Shown here: positions 1 through 36,239 of the stretch, piece after piece
Position numbering within the stretch: position 1 is the stretch's first letter
Layout: each line of letters opens with the position of its first letter
Origin: a virus
Lineage: Duplodnaviria > Caudoviricetes
Virus record (IMG/VR): IMGVR_UViG_3300025653_003531
Span: 1-36,239 of that record
Strand: one strand, 5' to 3'
DNA: 36,239 bases
Translations under genes and position numbers: made by a program
Notes under the pieces: model-generated
What the model was told of the DNA's origin: nothing
Databases searched by the model: none
Seen by the model: only the letters and a program-made list of their open reading frames with translations

Positions 1-691
1 AAGCCACGTCATTGACAAGTGGGAATATAAGGAAAACATGACCGGACGAATCGCTATAGATTGGGGCTTCAGGAAGCCAAGTGTTTTGATCATGGCCTAT
101 GATGAAGCGCTTGATGCAACAGTGATCTGTCATGAGATCAATCCACAGGAAGTCACAACCGACCAACTCACAACGCTGATCCTTTCCATAGCTTGGCCAC
201 GCTCGTTAAAGTCCAAAGCTCCCGGTCCTCGAATATGGATTGATACCGGAGTGGCTGACAAAGCAGGTAAAGCGAGAAACGACCAAACAGGCCAAAGCGC
301 TTTCCGAGTAATGAGACAAGATCCACCGAGAGGGCTTGGAGTTCCCTTGAGACACACCACCGACCCGATCAAGGTTGACATCTTGAATGGAGTCCAAAGA
401 CTCAAACGTGCTTTCAATTCAAAGCGCTATCTCATCACCAAAGAAGTATGGGACAAAGGCGAACGAGCGACCGGAAACAGTATTCGCAAGGCCATCCTCT
501 CTTATGCTTGGGATAACAAAGAGCAACCAAAGAAAGATGGAAGGGAAGATCCATTGGATGCATTGCGCTATGATTGCATAATGTTTAATTGGCATGAGAG
601 CGCTTTAGATCAAAAGTACAAGCCAAGAAGATCTGCTGGTGTTAGAACTAGGAATGTAAAGGTAGGGGGATCTAAGACAAGGAGCTTTTAA
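1..691 (+). CDS. terL: Terminase large subunit, C-terminal nuclease half (gene runs in from the other end of the window)
   Basis: Frame +2 is open from base 2 (SHVIDKWEYKEN-MTGRIAIDWGF). RNase H-like terminase motifs IDWGF and DGREDPLDALRY are present. Confidence 0.9.
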   Translation, partial: SHVIDKWEYKENMTGRIAIDWGFRKPSVLIMAYDEALDATVICHEINPQEVTTDQLTTLILSIAWPRSLKSKAPGPRIWIDTGVADKAGKARNDQTGQSAFRVMRQDPPRGLGVPLRHTTDPIKVDILNGVQRLKRAFNSKRYLITKEVWDKGERATGNSIRKAILSYAWDNKEQPKKDGREDPLDALRYDCIMFNWHESALDQKYKPRRSAGVRTRNVKVGGSKTRSF

Positions 692-1419
692 TGTTTCAAT
701 ACTTAGGTGGAAAAGGCCGAGTATCACGATTTCTGATCAACTACATGTCTGCAGTTCGTGAGGACAATATGACTTGGGTTGAGCCTTTTATGGGTTCAGG
801 TAAAGTTTTATTTAATGTTAAAGGCCCAAGAATTGGAAATGACATCAACCATGAATTAATTTCATTATTTAAAGCTGTTCAAAATGGATATGAACCACCA
901 GATAAAGTTACAGAAGATGAATATAATCACATGAAACATAATCAAGATTTATATCCTGATCATTTAAAAGGCTTTGTGAGCTTTGCCTGTTCGTTTGGCG
1001 GAAAAAGATGGGACAGTTATGCAAGAGGATTCAACGGCTCATCTCCTTTAACTTATCCAGAATGTGGGAAAAAAAACATCATGAAAAACAAACACAAAAT
1101 GAAAGGTGTTTCTCTATATTCTGGTGATTATAAAAAACTAACGATTCCTCCGAACTCTTTAATTTATTGTGATCCGCCTTATATAAATACAACAGGCTAT
1201 GGCTTTGAGTTTGATCATGATGAGTTTTATGATTGGTGTCGTCAGAAAGTAGACGAAGGTCATTTAGTTTTTGTTAGTGAGTATGAAGCTCCAGAAGACT
1301 TTGAATGTGTGTGGTCTAAAAAAGTATTCGTATCTTTAGAACGAAATAAAACTAACCACAAAGAAGAGAAGCTGTTTAGAGTACATAAGAAGCAAAAGTT
1401 CAAACTAATCACATATTGA
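691..1419 (+). CDS. Dam-like (D12 class) N6-adenine DNA methyltransferase
   Basis: YLGGK at the N-terminus, SAM-binding EPFMGSG, NDIN, catalytic YCDPPY and VSEY. ATG overlaps the terL stop (TAATG). Visibly more AT-rich than the backbone. Confidence 0.92.
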   Translation: MFQYLGGKGRVSRFLINYMSAVREDNMTWVEPFMGSGKVLFNVKGPRIGNDINHELISLFKAVQNGYEPPDKVTEDEYNHMKHNQDLYPDHLKGFVSFACSFGGKRWDSYARGFNGSSPLTYPECGKKNIMKNKHKMKGVSLYSGDYKKLTIPPNSLIYCDPPYINTTGYGFEFDHDEFYDWCRQKVDEGHLVFVSEYEAPEDFECVWSKKVFVSLERNKTNHKEEKLFRVHKKQKFKLITY

Positions 1420-1427
1420 GAAGAATC

Positions 1428-2252
1428 ATGGAACTGATTGAAACAAAGTTGGCCATAGTCCTTCTTGACCTTATTGGCTCGACTAGGTTTGTTCAATCAG
1501 CCGGAGCTATGAAAGCGGCTATGTGGCTTCAAAAGCATGATCGACTTACTCGCTCCCTGATCTACAAGTTTAATGGTCGAGAGATTGACCGGTCAGATGG
1601 TTTTCTTTTGAGCTTTGAGCGACCAATAGACGCTGTTAACTTTGCTTTGATCTACCAAGAAACGATTCCACCACAGATCAAACTAGGCTGTCGGATTGGT
1701 ATTCATTGGGGAGTGGTGGTTGAAGTCAAGCAAGATGAGATCTTCACCATGACAGGAGCTAAGTCAGTTGAGCTTGAAGGCATAGCCAAGAATATCGCAG
1801 CAAGAACAATGAGCCTTTGCCAAGCTGGTCAAGTCCTACTCACGACCGAAGCAATGAAAGCGATCAAGGGCCGAACCAATAGCTACACTCCTAAGAATAC
1901 AAGGTATGCTTGTGTAGGTGAATATAGATTCAAGGGAGTCCGAGAAAGTCAAATTGTTTATGCGGTCGGATCAACTATTGAATCTTTACAGCCACCACCT
2001 GGAAGCGAGAAGGTGAAGCGGATAGCAGGCCCAAAAAAGATCAAGAGTAAAGCAAGGGATAGGAAATTGAAAGAATGGCTAGTTTGGTTTGCTGTCAGAT
2101 ATTGCATGATAATGACCTTCTATGTGATCAGCGTTTCAGTTCCTGTCTTGATTGATCCACACGCTAGAAGAATGAATGGAGTTGATGACTTGTTCTTTTG
2201 GATTGATTATATAGTTGAGTTTATAACTATGTTTTTCTTGGGGGTATTATGA
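1428..2252 (+). CDS. Class III adenylate/guanylate-type nucleotidyl cyclase with two C-terminal hydrophobic segments
   Basis: LLDLIGST (first metal Asp), DRSDGFLLSF (second Asp), RIGIHWG, GIAKNIAAR (catalytic Asn and Arg), GQVLLT and FKG. C-terminal WLVWFAVRYCMIMTFYVISVSVPVLI and LFFWIDYIVEFITMFFLGVL. ATG 1428 preferred over TTG 1416. Confidence 0.88.
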   Translation: MELIETKLAIVLLDLIGSTRFVQSAGAMKAAMWLQKHDRLTRSLIYKFNGREIDRSDGFLLSFERPIDAVNFALIYQETIPPQIKLGCRIGIHWGVVVEVKQDEIFTMTGAKSVELEGIAKNIAARTMSLCQAGQVLLTTEAMKAIKGRTNSYTPKNTRYACVGEYRFKGVRESQIVYAVGSTIESLQPPPGSEKVKRIAGPKKIKSKARDRKLKEWLVWFAVRYCMIMTFYVISVSVPVLIDPHARRMNGVDDLFFWIDYIVEFITMFFLGVL

Positions 2253-2716
2253 ACGCAATAGAAGACAGACAAGAAGCCAAAGAGTTTTCAAAGGATGTCA
2301 AGGCAAGGCGTGGATGGTGGTTCTCTGTCATGTTCTTGCTGCTTATCGTTGGCCTGATCTTGTTCCTAACTTATGTCAAGATTGTCGATGAAAACAGGGA
2401 TGTCTTGGTGGGGATACTTGGTGTGATTACAGGCTCAATCTCTTCAATGGTCGCCATTGCTTCTGGTCGTGATCCATCAGAAGTGGAAGAGCTAAAGGAC
2501 AAACTAGCAAGCGCCAACTCTGACAGAGAAGCTTTGATTGCTCGTCTTCGGGATGCACAGATTCAAATGCAATTATTGAGAGAGCAGATCTTTGAACTCC
2601 AAACAGCGGTCATCGACAAGCTCTCCATCTTTAGCGGTCAGAAAGCAATCAAGACTAAGTCCACAGATCAAGTCATGTTGGATCCGACCATTGAGGAATG
2701 GATTCCTAAAAAGTGA
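2249..2716 (+). CDS. 2-TM membrane protein with C-terminal coiled coil (cyclase partner or holin-like)
   Basis: TM1 WWFSVMFLLLIVGLILFLTYV and TM2 VLVGILGVITGSISSMVAIA, then heptad-like EVEELKDKLASANSDREALIARLRDAQIQMQLLREQIFELQ. ATGA overlap with the cyclase stop. Confidence 0.8.
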   Translation: MNAIEDRQEAKEFSKDVKARRGWWFSVMFLLLIVGLILFLTYVKIVDENRDVLVGILGVITGSISSMVAIASGRDPSEVEELKDKLASANSDREALIARLRDAQIQMQLLREQIFELQTAVIDKLSIFSGQKAIKTKSTDQVMLDPTIEEWIPKK

Positions 2717-2787
2717 TTGTCTTTTAAAGCTACTCAACTTATAAGAAAAGCCTGTCGGTTGAACACGACAGAAAAACAAGGGTAAGG

Positions 2788-2827
2788 AAAAGGCCATTGA
2801 TCAAAAGTCAGTGGCCTTTTTCTTTTT
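2788..2827 (+). terminator. Rho-independent terminator, possibly bidirectional
   Basis: AAAAGGCCATTGA-tcaaaag-TCAGTGGCCTTTT hairpin with one G-U pair, followed by TCTTTTT. Confidence 0.8.
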
Positions 2828-3054
2828 AGGAGAATAGATAAGCTTACTCTCAAGGTGTTCAAGATTCTTGAAAAGAATAAAAAAAGAATAAGCTACTTCA
2901 CTCCCTAGTCCAAAAAAGCGCCGACTTTTAAAAAACCTAGAGAATGAAGTTGGATGAACATAACACTTGATTTTATACTGAACAAGCTTTTATTGATAAA
3001 TATGTGTTCAGTGTTTATAGTGTCTGTAAGCACCAATCCAATCAAGGGGCGCTA

Positions 3055-4473
3055 ATGAGCTACAATGAAACAAAAGAACGCTCACCGAAGCATATGAGAG
3101 CGCTGACACCTAGATTCACCACAAGGGGAATTACAGGAACTCAACTTGGCGGTGGAGTGATTACAGGCAAGGAGCAGAATCCACAACTGACCGGCCTTAA
3201 TTGGGTTCAAGAAGCTGAAGAAATGTTGAGAACGGATCCGATTGTGAGACGTTCTTGGCATATGCTTCGACAGACTTTGCTCTCTGCTTCTTGGCGCTTT
3301 GAACCTGGCATTGAAAACGATCCAATGGCTGACGAGTTGGCAAGATTCGCAAATGAAGCTTTTGGCTTTGATGGTTACAGTGGGCAGATGACTCTTTCAT
3401 GGGAGGATCAACTTGCTTATCTTTTTGAGTTTGTGCCTGTTGGGTATCGTTATGCTGAAGAAATCTATCGAGTAGGTCCAGACAGCAATGGCAATGTTAG
3501 AGTATGGCTTGACCATTATGCAGATCGTGAACCTAGCGCACACCAACGGTGGCTTAGTAGAGATAATCAAAACTTGGATGGTGTCCTTCAAAACGTTGTG
3601 GGCCTCACTTATGTTCCGGAGCCAATCCCGGCCAATAAGCTTTTATTGCTCACTCTCAACAAGACCGGTTCCAACTTTGAAGGAGTTGGGATGCTTAGGC
3701 CGGTTTGGTGGTGGTGGCGGACCAAGCAACGAGTATCTAATCTCATGTGTGTTGGTCTTGATCGGTGGGCTGTACCTACTCCAAAAGTAAAGGTTGATCG
3801 AAGTCAAGCTGAAGCTCTTGGTTTAACCGATGGCGACATTGACGCAATGATCAATGATGCTGAAGCTCAAGCACAATTATTCATAAGCGCTGAACAATCT
3901 TATCTTGTTGAGAATGACGCTGTCAGTTTTGACACTTACGCTGCTCAACCGAATCTTTATGCAAGTGGACCTTTGGAGATTATCACCAAGTGTGACTCCC
4001 AAATGTCAGCCGCTTTCCTTACTCAGTTTGCTGATCTTGGCAACACTGAAACAGGAGCAAGGTCAGTTGGTGAGATTCACCTTTCTGTCTTCAGAAGAGC
4101 AGCAATCAATCTTTGTGATCTTGTCGCTGGTCAAGTTAGCGGTGTTGATCGTAGAGGTGGCGGAACCATTGGGCGGTTGATCCGTTGGAACTTTGGCTTG
4201 GTCGATCCTTCTAAGCTTCCAAAGCTAACTCACACCGGTCTTGATACTGATGACTTGGCGGAATCTTTGGGGATGCTTCCCGGTCTTGTTCAAGCCGGTC
4301 TTCTCACTCCCGATGATGAATTGGAGCGAGCAATCAGAGAACGTCTTGGAGCCGGTGACCTTCCTGAAGACGCTCAAAGATCAGCGCTTGAAAGAACAGC
4401 TAGTCTTGGCGGTGGTGGTGGTGTGTCAGCTCTTGCTGAACAACTAATCAAGCGGAGAAAAGCTAATGGCTAA
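3055..4473 (+). CDS. Portal protein (DUF935 / Mu gp29-like)
   Basis: MLRTDPIVRR, NFEGVGMLRPVWWWW, GLDRWAVPTP, IITKCDSQMSAAFLTQ and ARSVGEIH are typical of DUF935 portals. Position before the protease fits. ATG 3055 follows AAGGGG. Confidence 0.88.
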   Translation: MSYNETKERSPKHMRALTPRFTTRGITGTQLGGGVITGKEQNPQLTGLNWVQEAEEMLRTDPIVRRSWHMLRQTLLSASWRFEPGIENDPMADELARFANEAFGFDGYSGQMTLSWEDQLAYLFEFVPVGYRYAEEIYRVGPDSNGNVRVWLDHYADREPSAHQRWLSRDNQNLDGVLQNVVGLTYVPEPIPANKLLLLTLNKTGSNFEGVGMLRPVWWWWRTKQRVSNLMCVGLDRWAVPTPKVKVDRSQAEALGLTDGDIDAMINDAEAQAQLFISAEQSYLVENDAVSFDTYAAQPNLYASGPLEIITKCDSQMSAAFLTQFADLGNTETGARSVGEIHLSVFRRAAINLCDLVAGQVSGVDRRGGGTIGRLIRWNFGLVDPSKLPKLTHTGLDTDDLAESLGMLPGLVQAGLLTPDDELERAIRERLGAGDLPEDAQRSALERTASLGGGGGVSALAEQLIKRRKANG

Positions 4474-6454
4474 GATCAAGAAGCGAACACAGGCCCAAAC
4501 TCCGGCACCTAAAAAAGATCAAGTGACCGGAAGCGCTAAGAATCCAAAAGGAAGCGCAAGCGGTTCTCGTGGTGGAATCGAGATCAGTGACCAAGCTGTC
4601 AAAGCTCTCCAAAACATGATCGACAAACACAATGACCAATACAAAGCCAAGTCTAAAAAGGTAGACATGGGAATGTTGAAGGCAGTGTTTAGACGTGGGG
4701 CCGGTGCTTTTTCTGTATCTCATAGGCCGGGTATGACAAGAACCCAATGGGCGCTTGCTCGTGTTAAGACTTTCCTTAAGTTGGTCGGCACAGGTGAACG
4801 GAAGAAAGCATACAACACAGATCTTGACTTGCTTCCCAAAGGTCATCCACAGCGAACCGAGAAGGAAGCCAAAGCTGAAACTTTAGCTCCGGCCAAGTAT
4901 GATCATATTGACTTTACTCCACCAAAGGGAGCGCAAGAAGCAGCAAAGCGAGCGCTTGAAGTCAGAGCAACCAAGCCACCAAGTCAAAGAGGGATGACCG
5001 ATGTTGGCATTGCTAGAGCTAGAGATCTAGGCAATGGGAAGCAACTATCTCCCGACACTGTTAAACGTATGCTCAACTACTTCACTCGACACGAAGTGGA
5101 TAAACAAGGTTCCACGTGGAACGATCAAGGAAAAGGCTGGCAAGCTTGGCAAGGTTGGGGCGGTGATGCCGGCTTTGCTTGGTCAAGAAAGGTTGTGAAT
5201 CAAATGAAACGTGCAGACGAAAAGTCAACAAGCCTTCGAGCTTATGGCGAAGCAATTCAACTCACTCACCTAAGTGAGCCAAGTTATGACATCCCTGAAG
5301 GGCTCACCATTGGGAAGCCATTCAAGACCTTAGCTCTTGGCCAAGTATCATCACGAATGAATGGTGAGAATATCGGCCAAGAAATAGATCATGAATTATT
5401 AAGCGAAATGATCCGAGTCTTTAATGAGCGCAAGCTTGCGGATCCTGTCATCATTGATTGGCAACACGCTACTTCACCTTTTCAAGGTGGCTCTCCAGCT
5501 CCTCCCGAAAGTGGAAACGCTCTTGGGATGATCGTTGAATTGGAACTTAGAGAAGATGGACTCTATGCAACACCAGCATATAACGAGCGAGGTCTTGATG
5601 TTGTCAAGTCTGCCGGCGGTGTTCTTTGGTCAAGTCCTGAGTTCTTAAACGGGGAAGTCTTTTCTCGTGATGGCGGATCCAAGATTGGTGACGCTCAATT
5701 ATTAGCAATTACTCTCACTCCCAGACCTGCTCAATCAAACGATAAGATTGGCCGGGTACTTTTAACCGAAAGGATAACATCAATGGACAACATTGAATCA
5801 TTATCTGTTGAAGAACTGCGCCAAATGCTCGTTGCTAAAGATGCTTTGGTCAAAGAACTTGAACAAAAGATGAAGGACATGATGGCTGAATCTGAGTCTG
5901 CAATGGTCGATCAAAAAGAAGAGACTATGAAAGAGGAAGAAGACAAAGCTGAAGAAATGTCTGAGTCTAAAGAAGAAGGCAAAGCTGAAAAGATGAAAGA
6001 AGACGAAGAGAAGAAAGCTTACAAGATGAGTGAGCAACTTGCTGAGTCTACTTTATTAAGTGAGGTTCAAGCGCTTCGAGAGAATAACGCTAAACTTTCA
6101 CAGCGTCTTGAAGCTATTGAAGCAGAGAAAAAAGAGGTTGAGAAACGTGAAGCAATCAACACTCTTTTAAATGAAGGCAAGATCACTCCAAGTGAGGCTG
6201 TTGTTGCTGGTAAAGCTTTCGAGCTTCGTGAGATCCAATCAGAGTTTTGGACCATGTTCAGCGAGCGACCTTCTAACAGCGCTCTTCCTTTAGTTGAAGT
6301 TGGTCATGGCGCAAGTGGCCAAGAAATCAACAAAGCTACTCTTGATCAAGAAGTCCGTAAATTAGCAACTGAAAAGTCTGTCAGCTATTCAGAAGCTCTT
6401 GACCTATTCGCTAAATCAAATCCTGACTATTACAACAAAGTATTTGGAGCTTAA
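4466..6454 (+). CDS. Mu gpI-like prohead protease/scaffold with two extra N-terminal basic domains
   Basis: Central VIIDWQH, ALGMIVELELREDGLYA, WSSPEF and AITLTPRPA (Mu-like protease). Acidic coiled-coil scaffold at the C-terminus. About 270 aa N-terminal extension. Confidence 0.82.
   Translation: MAKIKKRTQAQTPAPKKDQVTGSAKNPKGSASGSRGGIEISDQAVKALQNMIDKHNDQYKAKSKKVDMGMLKAVFRRGAGAFSVSHRPGMTRTQWALARVKTFLKLVGTGERKKAYNTDLDLLPKGHPQRTEKEAKAETLAPAKYDHIDFTPPKGAQEAAKRALEVRATKPPSQRGMTDVGIARARDLGNGKQLSPDTVKRMLNYFTRHEVDKQGSTWNDQGKGWQAWQGWGGDAGFAWSRKVVNQMKRADEKSTSLRAYGEAIQLTHLSEPSYDIPEGLTIGKPFKTLALGQVSSRMNGENIGQEIDHELLSEMIRVFNERKLADPVIIDWQHATSPFQGGSPAPPESGNALGMIVELELREDGLYATPAYNERGLDVVKSAGGVLWSSPEFLNGEVFSRDGGSKIGDAQLLAITLTPRPAQSNDKIGRVLLTERITSMDNIESLSVEELRQMLVAKDALVKELEQKMKDMMAESESAMVDQKEETMKEEEDKAEEMSESKEEGKAEKMKEDEEKKAYKMSEQLAESTLLSEVQALRENNAKLSQRLEAIEAEKKEVEKREAINTLLNEGKITPSEAVVAGKAFELREIQSEFWTMFSERPSNSALPLVEVGHGASGQEINKATLDQEVRKLATEKSVSYSEALDLFAKSNPDYYNKVFGA
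5783..6454 (+). CDS. Nested in-frame scaffolding protein (Mu gpZ-like)
   Basis: GAAAGGA-taacatca-ATG lies in frame exactly at the protease/coiled-coil boundary (MDNIESLSVEELRQML). Confidence 0.6.
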   Translation: MDNIESLSVEELRQMLVAKDALVKELEQKMKDMMAESESAMVDQKEETMKEEEDKAEEMSESKEEGKAEKMKEDEEKKAYKMSEQLAESTLLSEVQALRENNAKLSQRLEAIEAEKKEVEKREAINTLLNEGKITPSEAVVAGKAFELREIQSEFWTMFSERPSNSALPLVEVGHGASGQEINKATLDQEVRKLATEKSVSYSEALDLFAKSNPDYYNKVFGA

Positions 6455-20900: not shown

Positions 20901-21008
20901 GAGCCAACAACATATGCGAACGCTAGCGCAGATCATCAAGCAGATGCTTACTTGGCAAATGCTAGCAACGTGATCAACACAACGACCGAAGCACAGGAGT
21001 TTTCTTAA
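17934..21008 (+). CDS. Large tail-tip / hub protein
   Basis: 1024 aa. IGSETIR...TITATRAQGNTTPQFH segment and EAINRYG hub-like motif. Synteny. Confidence 0.62.
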   Translation: MTITKEHGRRIFALQVSGLEYRYHSTTPPNTTSLDANIATSIPYIDQEGISTVGAFSASVDPSGGIGQYSPVSVTLQIDRKGGLGDPGVIFGRCGARSASKRAQIIDDITRQDTLIKVGTDLTGLTYPRLLHIGSETIRASSATSSTITATRAQGNTTPQFHTVSLEGSFVPEVTTELTTFRGRRAKLFMAHQYPDGTVSDYVEIINGFIEQSPIIEAGDSIALSIVPLTALIDTELADKINQTRLLQGYHYYDGNYGSAIEYALGLSYDPINQEPVLYPDTSSTITANTFNAVILSNYGSEDYLADFDTSLPSGPDRDEYIGSHPRYPKLKKFVTANLATDGVYPTATAYSLSLNGYVINADSSPSSAFTAGEITNAGFFKITVNRYELKQHELGNQEVKQWPKVINDVLASDGPSSTQGFSGGFAQWRLNADNIIRASKLSNSPFAGKVVLWNGYNGFVKFKEHIENQYGSATPRAFTANGTNINYPPGIGLYYPLDLGEQEDPFYPDQGDKFIEVTASTQPRTGFFGLRDLAKAYYQNYESKILVEGSLGLPTTATAGETYDVTVLYYDRQSESTKRQTFQVTHESTVSFGGSTVGRILHIADSNSFSNNVSFADWQDSERVLIFRGSQVIEDNAGQIMLKLLESGGGNEINGDYDLLGLGLNISSTDIDEDSFLAVGASCPFVFTDQFAGDGSSLRDIFDSLLKLMGACLVMKREEATGKSRLSLQPLGAERTADSSLTIEAGDWLADQPPHWDIYEDIVTQIKYEFDYSAEEDSYLSEVIFNNQEAINRYGGERSKITLSLPGVSSRDFGRNAGDNFNFFLPSSSRIFNILSNPLRVWRGSIGTGSSAFLDVGSYVTVSSPHLRGYSDSYGVTNGVGMVRSINQELMSEGCEIELLTTGLAPVAWNATAQVSFIPTTTSVLVETDSFSRSDVDDVSFFKVGDVVDYLPQGDHDNAITGLEIQSISSNTITFTSSHGISTVKGTLEPTTYANASADHQADAYLANASNVINTTTEAQEFS

Positions 21009-21673
21009 TGCCAACTAAAGCAGAACTTGAGCAACAACTTGACGATCTAAAACATGATCTTAGACGCAGTGAGCGAGCATTGAATCAAGCTAGACTCGAT
21101 TTAGAGCAACTCGACACAAATGCTTACACTCAGAGTCATACAACTCCAGCTTTGTCTCCACAGACAAGACAAGCTCTTGATCGTGCCTATGCTGAGTGGG
21201 AGCGCGTTGTCGTTGATCCTGATGCAAGAGTTGATACTTATTGCAAGAGTAGAGAGGGCGCTGGATGGTCTTGGCAAGCTGACTATACAAAGAACGGCCA
21301 ATATGCTTGGTGTGGATTCTTTGCTGCTTTCTGTCATACAGCTGTCAAGTTCCCAATTCGCCAAAAAGTTATGCCTAGCTGTTATCGACTTTATAAAAAT
21401 TGGTCTAAGACATCGCGATCAATAGAGCATGGTAAGGTTGCTCCCGGTGATATTGTCGTTGTGTATAGTAGTAAGCGAGCGCTTCAAGGCGATCACATTA
21501 CTCTTTGCATTGACAACTCAACTGTTAATGAAGGGTACATCACGACCATTGAAGGAAATGCTCATGGGACTCTTGGGAATGGTGAATATGGCGAAGGTGT
21601 AATCAAGCGCCAGCGTAAGTTCTCTGAGTTCGCTCATGTCTATAGACTTCTAGGTGAGGACTTCGATGAATAA
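21008..21673 (+). CDS. CHAP-family cell-wall hydrolase (endolysin) with N-terminal coiled coil
   Basis: AWCGFF (catalytic Cys), PGDIVV, DHITL (His) and TIEGN. Confidence 0.82.
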   Translation: MPTKAELEQQLDDLKHDLRRSERALNQARLDLEQLDTNAYTQSHTTPALSPQTRQALDRAYAEWERVVVDPDARVDTYCKSREGAGWSWQADYTKNGQYAWCGFFAAFCHTAVKFPIRQKVMPSCYRLYKNWSKTSRSIEHGKVAPGDIVVVYSSKRALQGDHITLCIDNSTVNEGYITTIEGNAHGTLGNGEYGEGVIKRQRKFSEFAHVYRLLGEDFDE

Positions 21674-22270: not shown

Positions 22271-24292
22271 ATGGCAATTAAATCTTTTGGATTCGCAAGC
22301 GCAGGCGGTGGCGCAGGAACTGACAATCTTGATGATGTCACTTCAAGAGGAGCCACAACCACAAACGCCATCACAGTTGGTGGAGTCACTATTGGAACCG
22401 AGTACAGTCTTCCAACTCTCGATGGTTCAGAAAATCAAGTTCTCCAAACTAACGGAACCGGGACTCTAAGCTTTGCAACTTTAGACTTCACAGGTGGCCT
22501 TGAATACAAAGGCGCTTTCAATGCAACAGCAGGAACTCCAAGCCTTCTCAATGCCGAAAAAGGTGACTTCTATATCATCGACACAGCAGGCACAATTTAT
22601 GGGCAGACTTGGGCTGTCGGTGATCACTTGCTCATCAATGAAGACATGGGTGGCACAATCACCAATAGCAAGATCGACAAGATTGATAATACAGATACAC
22701 CGGCAAGCGAGACAGTGGCTGGAGTCATTGAGATCGCGACCAATGCCGAAGCGACAGCAGGCACAGCGACCGACAAAGCTTTGGTTCCAAGCAATATCAG
22801 TTCACTTGACTTGTCAGCGATGGACAATACAACAAGCGCTTTTATTTCAGACATCACAGGTGAGAGCCTTAATGATCTGAGTGATGTAAGCTTCACAGCC
22901 GGAGCAGGTATTGACAACTATGTTCTGACCTATGACAACGGAACATCAACTTGGGGAGCTGAAGCAGTACCAAGCGCAACACCGGCAAGTGAAACAGTGG
23001 CTGGAGTGATTGAGATTGCTACGAACGCAGAAGCCGGAGCAGGTACAGCGACCGATAAAGCTTTGGTTCCTAGCAATATCAGTTCTCTCGATTTGTCAGC
23101 AATGGACAACACAACAAGCGCTTTCATCACTGTCGGTGACATCCCAACAGCAAGCCACAGCACAGCAGGTATTTTAGAGACTGCTACAAATGCAGAAGCA
23201 ACAAGCGCGACTGCTAATGATAAGATTCTGACTCCTGCCAATCTTAGCCATATTGATCTAAGCACCTTTGACAATGATTCAGGATTCATTTCAAACATCA
23301 CAAACGAGAGCCTTAATGATCTGAGTGATGTGAGCTTCACAGCAGGCGCAGGGATTGACAACTATGTTCTGACTTATGACAACGGAACTAGCTCTTGGGG
23401 CGCGGAAGCGGTTCCCGGTGGAAGTCCAGCAAGCGAGACAACAGCAGGCATCATCGAGATTGCTACGAACGCGGAAGCGACAGCAGGAACAGCAACAGAT
23501 AAGGCGCTAGTTCCAAGCAACGTTTCATCACTCGATTTGTCAGCAATGGACAACACCACAAGCGCTTTCATTAGTGACATCACAAGCGAAAGCCTTAATG
23601 ATCTAAGTGATGTATCATTCACAGCCGGAGCCGGAATTGACAACTATGTTCTGACCTATGATCATGCAACGACATCTTGGGGAGCCGAAGCAGTACCAAG
23701 CGCAAGTCCTGCAAGCGAGACAACAGCTGGTATAATTGAAATTGCGACCAATGCGGAAGCGGGTGCAGGAACAGCAACAGACAAAGCTTTGGTCCCAAGC
23801 AATATCAGTTCACTCGATTTGTCAGCGATGAATAACACAACAAGCGCTTTTATCTCAAACATCACAAGCGAAAGCTTGAACGATCTGAGCGATGTAAGTT
23901 TCACAGCAGGCGCTGGTATTGATGGTCATGTGCTTACTTATGATAACACTGCTAGTGAATGGCAAGCGGTAGCACCCGCAAGCGGTGCAAAGCCTAATAT
24001 AACATCAGTAAGCACGTCTCAAACTACTGACTATACAATATCAACAAACACCGGAATAGAAGAAATATTTTTAATTGATTCTGGTGCATCTATTAATGTG
24101 AATCTTCCGAGCGCAAGTACTGTTGGATCGGGATATAAGTATGTTATTAAAAATCTATCTAGCTCATATACTTTAACAGTAGATGCGAATTCAACTGAAA
24201 CTATAGATGCTAGTTTAACATATCAGCTTAATGTACAATACCAAGCTTTGACTATTGTTAGCGATGGTACATCTAGCTGGTATATTATCTAG
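22271..24292 (+). CDS. Tail fibre protein with internal repeats
   Basis: LDDVTSRGATTT N-terminus, ASETxAGxIEIATNAEA and LNDLSDV repeats, C-terminal VNLPSAS...ETID...LTIVSDGTSSWYII domain. Strong SD. Confidence 0.85.
   Translation: MAIKSFGFASAGGGAGTDNLDDVTSRGATTTNAITVGGVTIGTEYSLPTLDGSENQVLQTNGTGTLSFATLDFTGGLEYKGAFNATAGTPSLLNAEKGDFYIIDTAGTIYGQTWAVGDHLLINEDMGGTITNSKIDKIDNTDTPASETVAGVIEIATNAEATAGTATDKALVPSNISSLDLSAMDNTTSAFISDITGESLNDLSDVSFTAGAGIDNYVLTYDNGTSTWGAEAVPSATPASETVAGVIEIATNAEAGAGTATDKALVPSNISSLDLSAMDNTTSAFITVGDIPTASHSTAGILETATNAEATSATANDKILTPANLSHIDLSTFDNDSGFISNITNESLNDLSDVSFTAGAGIDNYVLTYDNGTSSWGAEAVPGGSPASETTAGIIEIATNAEATAGTATDKALVPSNVSSLDLSAMDNTTSAFISDITSESLNDLSDVSFTAGAGIDNYVLTYDHATTSWGAEAVPSASPASETTAGIIEIATNAEAGAGTATDKALVPSNISSLDLSAMNNTTSAFISNITSESLNDLSDVSFTAGAGIDGHVLTYDNTASEWQAVAPASGAKPNITSVSTSQTTDYTISTNTGIEEIFLIDSGASINVNLPSASTVGSGYKYVIKNLSSSYTLTVDANSTETIDASLTYQLNVQYQALTIVSDGTSSWYII
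22700..23975 (+). repeat. Modular coding repeats A-B-A-A'-B-A-B-A-B' in the fibre gene
   Basis: A is about 48 aa (ASET...DKALVPSNISSLDLSAMDNTTSAFI). B is about 43 aa (ESLNDLSDVSFTAGAGIDNYVLTYD...WGAEAVP). Copies differ mostly at synonymous sites. Boundaries approximate. Confidence 0.92.
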
Positions 24293-25201: not shown

Positions 25202-25653
25202 CATATTTAGCAAAACCAAAGTCAAATGTGAGAGTTGATTTGCTTGTATTCAATGGACTATCTAGCGTTTCAGTGGGTACAATTTTTACAGTTAATGACA
25301 CTCCCAAAAATACAACTGCCGTGATAAATGCGTCGGGTCATATTGTTTTGCATGATCAATCGAGTTGGAGATTAGAAGCTAATTGTATGTGTCAATACTC
25401 GACCACAAGCGCAAGCTATGAAGCGATCTGGTGGTGGTATGATGGAACAAACAATTTAGGGAATCGCGGAAGGATGAGCAATGCAAGTAATACACAACTG
25501 AGTCGCGGTTCTTGTTCTCTTTTATTAAGATCTTCGGACATTACTAATACAATCACAATTTATCCTAGAATTAGTAATTTATCCGGCTCTCCTAATTATG
25601 ATGGTACTTATACTCCCTTACCTCATGTCAGAATCTACGAAATACCGAATTAA
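25198..25653 (+). CDS. Fibre-associated protein, apparent paralog of 24304-24777
   Basis: Shared MxY..PKSxV start, WW.D.T..LG core and HxxIxEI end. Confidence 0.55.
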   Translation: MTYLAKPKSNVRVDLLVFNGLSSVSVGTIFTVNDTPKNTTAVINASGHIVLHDQSSWRLEANCMCQYSTTSASYEAIWWWYDGTNNLGNRGRMSNASNTQLSRGSCSLLLRSSDITNTITIYPRISNLSGSPNYDGTYTPLPHVRIYEIPN

Positions 25654-25657
25654 AATA

Positions 25658-25954
25658 ATGATTGAACAACTATTAACAAACCGAGATCAAATTCCCTATG
25701 TCATCGCTTGCGCTTGTATCGTCTTGGCTTTGGTCGTTGGCTATATGTTTGGCCACCAAGATCCAGCGGTCGTTTGTGCTGACTATATTGTCAAAGAGCA
25801 TGAAGCGACAGAGAAAGCGCTGAAGCTGAATCAAAAGCTTACCGAGTGCAAGATCACCAAAGTTGGGGATGCTGTTATTGATTGTCAAAAAGTCTGTGAT
25901 GATCAGACAAGGAAAGCGCTTGAGAACTTCAAAGCGATCACTTGTGAGGATTAA
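25658..25954 (+). CDS. Membrane protein with N-terminal TM and Cys-containing helical region (spanin-like candidate)
   Basis: IPYVIACACIVLALVVGYMFG TM followed by a helical segment with five Cys. Confidence 0.55.
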   Translation: MIEQLLTNRDQIPYVIACACIVLALVVGYMFGHQDPAVVCADYIVKEHEATEKALKLNQKLTECKITKVGDAVIDCQKVCDDQTRKALENFKAITCED

Positions 25955-25957
25955 GCG

Positions 25958-26410
25958 ATGAGTTTTTTTTTAAGCATAATTGTCTTCCTCACTCCAATCG
26001 CTCCGTTAAGTGATATACCACCAACTTCAATTTGGCTTGGAAAAGGTATTCCGATCATTCAAGGTGAGAAGCTGAAGCCAGGTGATGAGATCAAAACGAT
26101 CAAGATGGCCTTGTCAGTTTATGACTTTGTGAGACTTAAGGGAGCGCTTGAAAGCTCAACAGATCTTTGTCAATGGGCGATTGAAGAGTCTGTCAAAGAG
26201 TGTATGCATGGAATGAAGACTCAGTTGGACATTGCGATAAATCGTGAGTCTAGTCAGGTTGAATTGATCCAAGCTTATGAGCACAGATTGAAGCAAACTG
26301 AAACAGCATTGAGCGAAGCGGAAAAGTATAATAAAATACTTTTATATGTTGCCGGTGGTCTTGCTATTGTGTCAGCTTCAGCAACAACACTCTTTTTCAT
26401 AGGGAAGTAA
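25958..26410 (+). CDS. Exported or membrane protein with coiled coil and C-terminal TM
   Basis: Hydrophobic N-terminus, coiled coil, ILLYVAGGLAIVSASATTLFFIGK. GAGGA SD. Confidence 0.6.
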   Translation: MSFFLSIIVFLTPIAPLSDIPPTSIWLGKGIPIIQGEKLKPGDEIKTIKMALSVYDFVRLKGALESSTDLCQWAIEESVKECMHGMKTQLDIAINRESSQVELIQAYEHRLKQTETALSEAEKYNKILLYVAGGLAIVSASATTLFFIGK

Positions 26411-26412
26411 TT

Positions 26413-26715
26413 ATGGACAGCATGAATCCGATAGATGTTGGTCAACTCTTAGCCTTAGCTGCTTTTTGGTACTCGACCACCAAAGACAAGGCTCAAAAGT
26501 CAGAAGAGCTTGGTCGGATGAAGCAACAGATCGCAACGCTTGAAACAAAGAGTGTTCAAGTGGATAGTCAGTTGAATGATATTAATACCAAGCTCAATCA
26601 ACTCATGGAGTCAAATGCTAGGCTTGAAGCTCAAATGAGATTGCTCCTTGGAAAAAAAAACCTTAAGTTTGTCGACACTCCCATGAGCTTTGCTAGTGGT
26701 ACTTATGAAGGCTAA
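26413..26715 (+). CDS. Small membrane-anchored coiled-coil protein
   Basis: VGQLLALAAFWY followed by heptads LGRMKQQIATLETK...LNDINTKLNQL. Confidence 0.6.
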   Translation: MDSMNPIDVGQLLALAAFWYSTTKDKAQKSEELGRMKQQIATLETKSVQVDSQLNDINTKLNQLMESNARLEAQMRLLLGKKNLKFVDTPMSFASGTYEG

Positions 26716-31713: not shown

Positions 31714-33684
31714 ATGACTATAATGACTAAAATGGAAGACAATAACGTTGTCGAAGGACTGCACCGAACTTATGAAAACATGGATCCTTGCCAATATGTT
31801 CGAGAGATCTATCAAAACAGCGTTGAAGCCGGTGCGACAGACATCCGCTTCACTTTGGATAAATTAGCCAAGAAAGTTCTTGGTGTTGAGCGCGGAGTTG
31901 GGATTGATAATGGACCAGGTATTCCAAAAGATAAGATCAAAGACTTAATCAATAAAAAGAACAGTTCATCCAAGAACACCAATGGACCAGACCAAAACTT
32001 TGGAGTTGGCCTAAAGGTCGCTGCTTTACCAAGAAATCAATATGGCTTGATTGTCATGTGCAGAACCAAAGAGCAACCAAAGGGCTTCATGATATGGCTT
32101 TGTTATGACTTTGACCATGATGGGAATCTTATTGCTGGAACAAAGGCATTGACTAGTCTTGAGCAATGGAATGATTACAATGATGGAACGATCAGTGAAC
32201 TTGTTCCAAATGATTTAATTGACTTCCAAGAGATTCAAGATGCTCACTATGATTCTTTTACTTTTCATGGAATTGATTGGATGTCTTGGTGGGATGCCAA
32301 CAGTGAGAACGAAACGGGGACAGCTGTCATCCTTTGTGGCAATAGCAATAAAGGAGATGAAAACACTTTCAATCATCTAATCTATGAAGGTAAATCTTTT
32401 TTACAATCAAGATATTTAAAATATGATGTTCGGCCTATCTTTGGGCGTAGATCAAACACTGCAAAGCAAAACATAACTCATAACACAATCTATGATCCTT
32501 TATCAGTGTTGAGTGAGTTCTATGCTGAAACAGGAACAATCACATTTAAATCTTGGAAACTTCATTATTTTGTCCGGACAAAACTTGAAGATCATGGCGG
32601 AGAGAAAACAACAGCTTTAATTCATAAGAAGTTTAAAGAAATCATCTTATATAAGAATGAACTTTATGGAGATTACACAAGCCTTCATCCATTAAGCATA
32701 GCAGCACAAAGGAACTCTTGGGGGATCTTTTACAAGAGTGTTGGCGATCGTGTCACTTTGATCATTGAGCCACCAATCTACAATAAGAGAACAGGAAAAG
32801 GAGTCTATCCAAATGAAGCTCGCTCACAGCTTTCTTGGAAAGATTCAAAGGATGCAACTCCGGTTCAAACTATTCCGCTTGATAAACTCAAAGCTCACTT
32901 CATTAAGAATATGCCAGAATCAATTCGACAGTTAATTGAAGACGAGCATACTTTAGAAATGAGTGAGTATAAAAAAAGCAAGGTGGCCGAAGAATTAAAT
33001 CAATGGCTGTCTATTCCAAAGGACAAGCGCAAGTCTAAGAGTGGCGAAGGTCTTTTGATTGCGGATCCAAGAGGAACTTTAATTGGCGGACTTCCAACCG
33101 GTGATCTTTTCTCGAATCTCAAAGCTGGTCAATCTGACAGTTCTTCTAATTCAGGCAACAGTAAAGACAAGACTAAGAAAGAGCCAACAGAGGAAGAACT
33201 TAAAAAGAAGGAAGAAAAGCGCAAGGCAAGAGAGCAAGCCGAAAAGAAACGACAAGAGCCACCAACAGTGACATTTCACAAACAAAGTGAGGATCAAGCT
33301 GAAGAATGGTTCAAGCGCAATGGCCAATGGCAGGTTGCTTTCTATGAAGAGCCGGGAGCCAATGGACAAGGTAATCTCTTAAGGATCAATCAAAACCATG
33401 ATTGTTTTTGGGGATATATGAACCTTGTTGAAGATTGGCTCAAAGCAAAAGGTAAGAAGATGCATAAAGCAGAAATCTTTCAACATATAGTCAGACCTTT
33501 TTGGGAAGACTATGCTCCTTGCAAGATTCAACACGCTAAAACCATTCAAGCAACAAAGCGAGATAAAGATGGCTTTGCTCCTGAGCGCTTAACCTTTGCT
33601 TTCTATGGTGATATTCACTTTTTAAAACCTTTAATCCATACCTATTATAAGCAATTTGAAAAAGGTAATGTTGGCCAATGTTAG
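31714..33684 (+). CDS. GHKL (MORC/MutL/Hsp90-like) ATPase
   Basis: REIYQNSVEAGA (N box), IDNGPGI (G1), NFGVGLK (G2) and GTAVIL (G3), a charged linker and a C-terminal INQNH domain. Confidence 0.82.
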   Translation: MTIMTKMEDNNVVEGLHRTYENMDPCQYVREIYQNSVEAGATDIRFTLDKLAKKVLGVERGVGIDNGPGIPKDKIKDLINKKNSSSKNTNGPDQNFGVGLKVAALPRNQYGLIVMCRTKEQPKGFMIWLCYDFDHDGNLIAGTKALTSLEQWNDYNDGTISELVPNDLIDFQEIQDAHYDSFTFHGIDWMSWWDANSENETGTAVILCGNSNKGDENTFNHLIYEGKSFLQSRYLKYDVRPIFGRRSNTAKQNITHNTIYDPLSVLSEFYAETGTITFKSWKLHYFVRTKLEDHGGEKTTALIHKKFKEIILYKNELYGDYTSLHPLSIAAQRNSWGIFYKSVGDRVTLIIEPPIYNKRTGKGVYPNEARSQLSWKDSKDATPVQTIPLDKLKAHFIKNMPESIRQLIEDEHTLEMSEYKKSKVAEELNQWLSIPKDKRKSKSGEGLLIADPRGTLIGGLPTGDLFSNLKAGQSDSSSNSGNSKDKTKKEPTEEELKKKEEKRKAREQAEKKRQEPPTVTFHKQSEDQAEEWFKRNGQWQVAFYEEPGANGQGNLLRINQNHDCFWGYMNLVEDWLKAKGKKMHKAEIFQHIVRPFWEDYAPCKIQHAKTIQATKRDKDGFAPERLTFAFYGDIHFLKPLIHTYYKQFEKGNVGQC

Positions 33685-35551: not shown

Positions 35552-36239
35552 ATGACAGAAATCAAACTAAATCCTTTACAGCTTGAAATCATCAAAGGCA
35601 TCACTCGAAAAGACAAGGTAATAGCAGCGCGTTGTGGATGGGGTTCCGGCAAGACTTCAGCGCTTGTGTTCTCCATCCTATACCTTGCCAAGACTCGACC
35701 GGGAACATCTTCCTTGTTGGTCACTGACACAACACCAAGATACAACTCTGTCTTGATGCCAGAGATGGAGAAGTGGTTGAGTCCTCTTGGATGGACTTAT
35801 AACCACACTATGAAGCAGTGGACCGACCAGCATACAGGGAGTCAAGTGTGGTGTCGCTCTTACTTCCGACCGGGAACAAGAGAAGCAACTCATAATCCTC
35901 TTGAAGGTCTTAACGTAACAAGCGGAGTCTGTCTGATTGATGAATGTCAGACACTTACGATGGAGGTTGCTCACAAAGCGCTTGGTCGTCTTCGTGCTGG
36001 TCCGAGTCCGATCTTGATCTTGGTGGGTCTTCCGGTCGTTGATGCTTGGTGGGTTAATATGGCGGAGAGTCAAAACATTGCTCCCTTGTTCTTCAGCTCT
36101 TATGTCAACCAAGACAACCTTGCTGATGAATGGTTTGAAGCAACCAAGATGCTTCCACCGGATGAGCGAGAAGCCATGATCATGAATAAGCCAAAGCCAC
36201 CGAGCGGATTGATTTATTCAGAGTTCACCGAAGCGAGCC
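35552..36239 (+). CDS. terL: Terminase large subunit, N-terminal ATPase half (runs off the end, absent from the ORF track)
   Basis: Hand translation MTEIKLNPLQ (Q motif), CGWGSGKT (Walker A), LEGLN, CLIDECQ (Walker B) and ALGRLR. Open to the last base. Confidence 0.92.
   Translation, partial: MTEIKLNPLQLEIIKGITRKDKVIAARCGWGSGKTSALVFSILYLAKTRPGTSSLLVTDTTPRYNSVLMPEMEKWLSPLGWTYNHTMKQWTDQHTGSQVWCRSYFRPGTREATHNPLEGLNVTSGVCLIDECQTLTMEVAHKALGRLRAGPSPILILVGLPVVDAWWVNMAESQNIAPLFFSSYVNQDNLADEWFEATKMLPPDEREAMIMNKPKPPSGLIYSEFTEAS

Follow-up and report, generated by a model that had tools for sequence, protein, structure and literature searches.

A phage-encoded class III nucleotidyl cyclase paired with a two-helix membrane protein between the terminase and portal genes

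Between the large terminase subunit (terL) and portal genes of the phage studied here lie a gene for a nucleotidyl cyclase and a gene for a small membrane protein, which raises the question of whether the two act as one unit and to what end a phage would make a cyclic nucleotide. Phages are known to degrade or sequester the cyclic nucleotides of their hosts. The stretch of DNA analyzed (the window) is a whole phage record of 36,239 bases (CheckV 100%). The 5′ half of terL (35552-36238) and the 3′ half lie at opposite ends of the window and adjoin without a break in relatives (L001, for example), which makes the record a circular permutation opened within terL. The genome also encodes portal, capsid, tape measure, tail fibre, CHAP endolysin, RecT, initiator, DnaC-like loader, SSB, ThyX, and terS proteins, and no integrase or repressor family was found among the 40 proteins scanned against Pfam and PHROG. 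The best-matching public sequencing runs are labeled freshwater metagenome, 17 runs contain at least 0.86 of the record's words, and run X1 covers 30 of 30 bins of positions 600-3300, so the stretch is real. The phage collection searched contained neither a cultured relative nor a cultured phage with the cyclase/two-helix pair; its matches to capsid and portal reached only 24-30% and that to SSB was weak. A portal search confined to 401 genomes of one phylum (that of G122) gave a single match of 42% on a 7-kb contig on which neither cyclase nor partner is present. Features of the locus are collected in Table 1.

Table 1. Coordinates of features at the terL-portal interval of the window
Feature	Position	Strand	Basis or detail
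terL, 3′ half	2..691	+	PHROG 5653
Dam-family adenine methyltransferase	691..1419	+	PF02086, TIGR00571
Cyclase ORF	1428-2252	+	274 aa from ATG
Class III nucleotidyl cyclase catalytic domain (~residues 1-200)	1428..2027	+	alignment, profiles, model
Cyclase basic linker, predicted membrane helix (214-242), short helical tail	2028..2252	+	model helices, hydropathy
Partner, 155 aa	2249-2716	+	two predicted membrane helices (~23-43, 50-71), coiled-coil-like helix 76-128
Small hairpin with T run	2751..2772	-	z -4.3; terminator scan gave 1 against 1.3 expected by shuffling
Intrinsic-terminator-like hairpin	2784..2827	+	hairpin 2784-2824, T run to 2827
Conserved pre-portal block	2963..3030	+	8-bp inverted repeat (2977-2984, 3005-3012), sigma-70-like site (2993-3021)
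Portal	3055..4473	+	PF06074, PHROG 113

The preliminary description of this locus had read the first gene as a class III cyclase with both metal-binding aspartates and the catalytic asparagine/arginine pair, and profile, structure, and conservation bear this out. The protein passes the Pfam Guanylate_cyc model (PF00211; 23.4 bits against a cut-off of 21.9), and its predicted structure (pLDDT 84) has the class III fold, with LipJ as the best structural match (rmsd 1.9 Å over 166 aligned residues) and CyaB, trypanosome cyclases, and Cya2 among the other top matches. An in-frame TTG at 1416 lies upstream of the ATG, and the closest relatives correspond to the 274-residue protein. Residue roles were assigned by alignment to LipJ and Ma1120 (trypanosome cyclases were also aligned) together with general class III knowledge: D14 and D57 bind metal, N122 and R126 are the transition-state pair accompanied by R89 and K169, and D54, K112, E115, E117, and K121 line the pocket. 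D14, D54, D57, R89, K112, E117, G118, K121, N122, R126, and K169 are invariant in 113/113 distinct viral cyclases, and R55 and E115 are kept in 110 of them. The enzyme belongs to class III by fold and residues, and to judge from those residues it appears catalytically intact. The five closest cyclases give dN/dS values of 0.028-0.061 and the four closest partners 0.023-0.048 (the misaligned row L021 was left out, and pairs with saturated dS were excluded); both genes are under purifying selection, with dN/dS of 0.02-0.06. The tail behind the catalytic domain contains one well-conserved hydrophobic helix (above 1.6 in 81/94 relatives), and a second helix is hydrophobic in 14/89. With a basic linker first, a single conserved hydrophobic helix next, and a variable tail at the end, the protein probably has its catalytic domain anchored on the cytoplasmic side.

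Among solved structures, the mycobacterial compact class III cyclases Rv1900c/LipJ (1ybt, 1ybu) and Ma1120 match best (Foldseek E 1e-13; Z 22.6 and 18.3), but they share only ~25% identity with the phage enzyme, carry Asn or Lys rather than Asp at the first specificity position, and are soluble domains in other architectures. A cyclase gene in aquatic phages has a precedent in the adenylate cyclase carried by pelagiphage curli (T8SS) clusters (PMC9599517); as described there, and compared by description only, that gene differs in lying in a histidine kinase/FecR/curli cluster, with no two-helix partner mentioned in the portion consulted. BFVD holds unrelated viral cyclase models of 11-19% identity. 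A long-branch subgroup of cyclases from low-GC large phages (L287:2734-3582, L288:2889-3752, and L290:2578-3471) has altered pocket positions 55 and 115 with the catalytic residues intact, likely making it a specificity variant; these loci have genes inserted before the partner and a small two-helix gene upstream on the opposite strand. In some large phages, Cys-rich mini-proteins are encoded directly 5′ of the cyclase (L017:5749-5994, L034:5721-6014, and L290:2397-2606); they are absent in the window.

The Atlas cluster containing the cyclase has 1722 members, 99% of them viral. The nearest cellular proteins (115) are cyclases of 800-1400 aa fused to TPR, kinase, or STAND domains, including TIGR04510, and cellular kin were found at 79 genome loci in many phyla. 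Of the 63 domains placed in a tree, the 31 from phages all fall on one side of a branch supported by 100/100; the tree is midpoint-rooted only and thus silent on the direction of transfer. By this tree the phage enzymes form a phage-only branch beside the TIGR04510/XC_0250-type cyclases. The catalytic domains of the two groups are 35-45% identical and share the motifs EID[KR][ST]DG and AKxxExEGxxK, and the TIGR04510 type likewise has a membrane helix after the cyclase domain; D54, K112, E115, G118, K121, and R126 are common to the phage cyclase, most of the 115 long proteins, and L285, an XC_0250-type protein. In contrast to these 800-1400-residue proteins, the phage protein has 274 residues and lacks any TPR, kinase, or STAND part, and it retains the catalytic Asn, which is mostly replaced in cellular kin (by P in 87/115). 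Its TIGR04510 score is 147 bits, against more than 400 required, with only profile positions 7-204 of 814 aligned, and on this measure it lies outside TIGR04510 proper (putative peptide modification system cyclase). The genomic setting differs as well: the phage-type partner occurs in 0/79 bacterial cyclase loci, and the bacterial neighbor is a cNMP-GGDEF protein. A GTDB scan for phage-type cyclase motifs returned 60 pattern matches, 0 of them confirmed. L178, considered as a short cellular cyclase, was rejected as a broken TPR-type gene among IS elements.

Class III enzymes usually carry Lys/Asp or Glu/Cys at the specificity positions, and the phage pocket fits neither pattern. It is noncanonical, being acidic at both specificity positions and with a loop one residue short. 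TIGR04510 members occur in 31/121 genomes of one order, among which L285:1453-3945 (genome G105) matches 6/6 residues numbered in the report on XC_0250 of Xanthomonas campestris with offset 0, and L282 matches 5/6. L285 adjoins a cNMP-binding/GGDEF gene, as XC_0249 adjoins XC_0250 in that report (PMC3770947), and its domain is 37% identical to the phage domain, with D54, K112, E115, E117, K121, and R126 in common. Residues 1-220 of XC_0250 were reported to convert GTP to cGMP and not to convert ATP (PMC3770947, for which no retraction notice was found). Because the L285 pocket is like that of the phage enzyme and XC_0250 is reported to convert GTP, cGMP is the best guess for the product; by this analogy, which goes back to a single report, GTP is the probable substrate at somewhat better than even odds. 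ATP is unlikely to be the substrate, an inactive enzyme would be less likely again, and a pyrimidine nucleotide is the least expected. In L285, the first metal-binding Asp aligns to D28 and the Asn/Arg positions correspond to P141/R145, and the assignments of D41 and L157/A161 in PMC3770947, so far as they are given in the part consulted, disagree with the alignment made here. For the immune cyclases, the Pucsar preprint names Glu118/Lys195 in PucC and Tyr50/Asp94/Arg97 in BcPycC as specificity residues.

The cyclase had also been described as coupled through ATGA to a gene for a two-helix, coiled-coil protein, and the ORFs indeed overlap by ATGA at 2249-2252. The hydrophobic helices of the partner have Kyte-Doolittle values of 2.7 and 2.2, and its model is all-helical, with helix 76-128 long. 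A fold search with this low-confidence model (pTM 0.32) gave no match at E <0.001 and is uninformative. That the genes co-occur in related phages, on which the preliminary description had made its reading depend, was found in two surveys. Both genes are present in 112/121 distinct loci (the start-codon gap was resolved in all but 15 of the 112), and the 9 others all break off within 73 bases; seen from the cyclase, the partner is in the locus of 111/113 distinct cyclases, with both misses at contig ends. When loci were instead selected by portal (the best 80 of 457, of which 60 span terL to portal, near-duplicates included), both genes were present in 58/60, neither in 2/60 (L297 and L342), and single loss was never seen; the pair is thus near-core in this phage group. 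The same order recurs in phages of 64-275 kb with different neighbors. Genes can be inserted between the two (Dam in L053; 1.2-1.5 kb in L287-L290), so translational coupling is not essential. Dependence is one-way, in that the cyclase is never seen without the partner and sisters of the partner exist without a cyclase. A complex prediction for cyclase plus partner scored 0.00, a result that gives no verdict and counts neither way. In RNA runs X18, X19, and X22, pieces from relatives span both genes, as contigs that do not demonstrate transcription. A literature search, judged from its search results, found no paper on the pair; the cyclase/two-helix pair is a real, widespread, and undescribed phage module.

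In L297, whose portal is 95% identical to that of the window, the first nine cyclase codons run straight into the spacer ahead of the terminator, as if one deletion had removed both genes. The scar (L297:6783-6865) contains a 5-base stretch common to both ends, read by eye, which suggests an origin from microhomology; a defective genome or an assembly artifact could also account for L297. The L297 and L342 records are 46% and 44% complete, and absence of the pair there refers to the locus.

The partner clusters are viral only, and mean column identity is 63% in 27 diverse members. A profile search of 1.84 billion representatives yielded 121 partner matches in three tiers. In tier 1 (at least 200 bits), a cyclase is in the locus of 97/97 partners, partly by construction, the profile having been built from such proteins. 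In tier 2 (100-200 bits), with a positive control run, a cyclase is in 0/15 loci and 0/3 complete genomes; most of these are sister phages, with terL and portal ~62% identical to those of the window. The sister phages L440, L444, and L445 (G528-G530) have 36 kb, 55-64% GC, and terL inverted relative to portal; in them the partner gene closes the replication operon and there is no cyclase. In tier 3 (110-140 aa), a cyclase is in 0/62 loci, and 11 of 24 representatives (from 139 loci) directly flank an endolysin gene (Peptidase_M15, Amidase_2, or GH19), a count that covers 52 of the 97 neighbors listed and has no background rate beside it; in the other 13 no adjacent endolysin was seen. The sole PHROG relative of the partner, PHROG 9990, is of unknown function. 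Proteins of this kind in lysis cassettes share with the partner the two-helix core, an NxD loop motif, and the coiled coil after it, and differ in being 110-140 aa long, without a cyclase and often beside endolysins. From this survey, the partner arose from a membrane-protein family associated with lysis, existed before the pairing, and is itself no known nucleotide receptor.

The preliminary description had allowed that the partner might prove a plain holin. Lysis-associated ancestry stands, with the endolysin neighbors of the short relatives; a plain holin does not follow, as ~18 kb separate the partner from the CHAP endolysin gene of the window (~19 kb in the sister G528) and no holin family was found in the Pfam or PHROG tables for 27 partner members. 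Four of the 11 endolysin cassettes also contain a GTA_holin_3TM gene over the cut-off, so the short relatives may well be something other than holins. The pair is not a named holin system. L021 has an endolysin gene directly 3′ of the pair.

The pair had been called an insertion between terL and portal. It does lie in that interval; the call missed Dam, and "inserted" is misleading, with Dam in the interval in 6/60 loci and the pair in 58/60. Dam is an optional insert outside the module: its gene has a GC content of 34-37% versus 43% for the window, and contigs in runs X1 and X18 join position 690 to 1428 without it. The slot also takes ThyX and dCMP deaminase genes. Downstream, the terminator proposed to close the pair holds up: the plus-strand hairpin has a z of -5.3 (0/200 shuffles) and is kept in 6/6 aligned relatives, and a simple terminator scan did not pick it up. 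It would close a terS-terL-cyclase-partner transcript. The minus-strand hairpin, poorly kept in relatives, is a possible antisense terminator. The noncoding block before portal is nearly invariant in 6/6 aligned relatives, is kept in L342 too, and is likely the promoter or operator of the structural (late) operon; the promoter scan by itself was not above chance (3 found, 4.3 expected). The pair thus ends the replication-packaging gene run before a promoter-like block of the structural genes and would presumably be transcribed with that run.

We favor, at a probability of about 0.4, the reading that the pair is one membrane module whose cGMP, made in the course of lytic growth, adjusts host physiology or the timing of lysis. 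The membrane-anchored cyclase would be expressed from the replication-packaging transcript, is predicted to dimerise, and would make cGMP during lytic growth, and the two-helix partner would anchor and gate it by physical contact. In the cellular kin the membrane helix is followed by sensor modules; the phage enzyme has lost these and gained a fixed membrane partner, which would stand in for them. The targets of the cGMP would then be cNMP-binding regulators of the host or the lysis control of the phage itself. What in this goes beyond pairing, conservation, and ancestry we infer, and linkage by itself is silent on which protein controls which. The lysis-timing branch is weakened by the distance of the partner from the endolysin, and slow evolution with near-core presence is more in keeping with a conserved physiological target than with an arms race. 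A variant that we hold possible but doubtful makes the partner a lysis-family membrane protein that came to serve a captured guanylate cyclase as its sensor: the phage would read the state of the host membrane (e.g., superinfection or depolarisation) and answer with a cGMP pulse that sets the time of lysis or reprograms the host, the module having been acquired once and now being common to 36-kb siphoviruses and jumbo phages.

An unlikely reading makes the pair a nucleotide sensor for lysis, the partner being a holin or antiholin gated by an NTP-binding cyclase domain with little or no diffusible product. The partner family flanks endolysins (11/24), an endolysin directly follows the pair in L021, and the partner is older than the pairing; however, N122 and R126 are invariant, as expected of an enzyme, the GTA_holin_3TM genes already present in 4/11 cassettes mean that short relatives need not be holins, and further candidates for lysis genes lie at 25598-26715. 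All three of these encode small membrane or coiled-coil proteins, one of which weakly matches an Rz-like spanin (E 0.0024); they may form a lysis cassette ~4 kb from the CHAP endolysin (21008-21673).

The architecture had been likened to bacterial Pycsar, a class III cyclase next to a membrane effector, and this analogy is not supported on comparison. What is shared is a stand-alone class III cyclase adjoining a membrane protein. No PADLOC family matches either protein at E up to 1 (2023 library, without Pucsar models); no PycC sequence is among the 8 PDB matches at E up to 10; and Pycsar cyclase structures score lower against the model (7r65, Z 16.4; 8jsf, 15.9; 8jsz, 15.2) than LipJ, CyaB, Cya2, and others (20.3-22.6). 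By profile and structure rank the phage cyclase, whose kin are of the TIGR04510 type, lies outside the PycC clade, and it has a membrane tail. The partner has two membrane helices and a coiled coil, whereas the effectors named in the Pucsar preprint are three-helix pJV1-spdB3 or CNBD-TIR proteins; among the families shown for 27 partner members there is no PycTM, cNMP_binding, or TIR match. The phage pair is moreover viral, near-core, and slow-evolving, and it belongs to neither Pycsar nor Pucsar.

A Pycsar-like role in superinfection exclusion or against competitors, in which a second phage triggers the cyclase and the cyclic nucleotide opens a two-helix pore, is accordingly rather improbable. 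Cyclase and membrane protein do share one operon; SLATT_fungal, a two-helix effector of nucleotide-signaling systems, is weakly matched by 26/27 partner sequences (best E 5.5e-5, which may reflect the two helices only; the window partner scores 17.4 bits, below the cut-off of 26.5); and some members of the cellular clade are STAND NTPase fusions, which the Pucsar preprint assigns to an immune clade. Against this, the partner has no cNMP-binding domain and sisters without any cyclase, PADLOC is silent, the slow evolution and near-core presence differ from the long branches of immune cyclases in that preprint, and with no integrase or repressor family among the 40 proteins there is no evident lysogenic state to protect.

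Counter-defense genes are usually patchy and fast-evolving. We give as little weight to a counter-defense role, in which a decoy or competing cyclic nucleotide would jam host nucleotide immunity or spoof Panoptes-type surveillance and the partner would only anchor or stabilize the cyclase. The slot that accepts Dam, ThyX, and dCMP deaminase genes would suit such a role, cGMP is now an antiphage messenger according to the Pucsar preprint, and bacteria use decoy nucleotides (Panoptes, as described in the part of the literature consulted); the pair, however, is near-core and slow-evolving, and cGMP would activate rather than jam Pucsar effectors. That two independent genes travel together by linkage only is very improbable: sisters of the partner function alone and insertions between the genes are tolerated, but the order is the same in 36-kb and 64-275-kb phages with different neighbors, and 60 loci contain no single loss and 2 joint losses.

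If the favored reading of a cGMP-making membrane module is true, many aquatic phages make their own cyclic-nucleotide signal with a phage-only, near-core, conserved cyclase and a dedicated membrane partner. Both genes are small, and their natural variants run to hundreds (721 and 1551 proteins); the natural knock-outs L297 and L342, the cyclase-free sisters, and L287/L288/L290 are material for comparing product and wiring. The pair would in addition offer a second way into the XC_0250/TIGR04510 cyclase clade, which has been little studied.

Elsewhere in the window, Rfam gave no match, and the motif TGAACA occurs 52 times against 36 expected (1/100 shuffles as high), scattered inside genes. The replication operon includes a 656-aa GHKL/HATPase_c_3 ATPase (31714-33684), which we take to be MORC-like and which varies among close relatives and is present in sister phages. 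The head protease/scaffold protein (4466-6454) has an N-terminal DUF5824-like extension, and similar short domains are free-standing in L021. The tail-fibre protein (22271-24292) contains about four long internal repeats.
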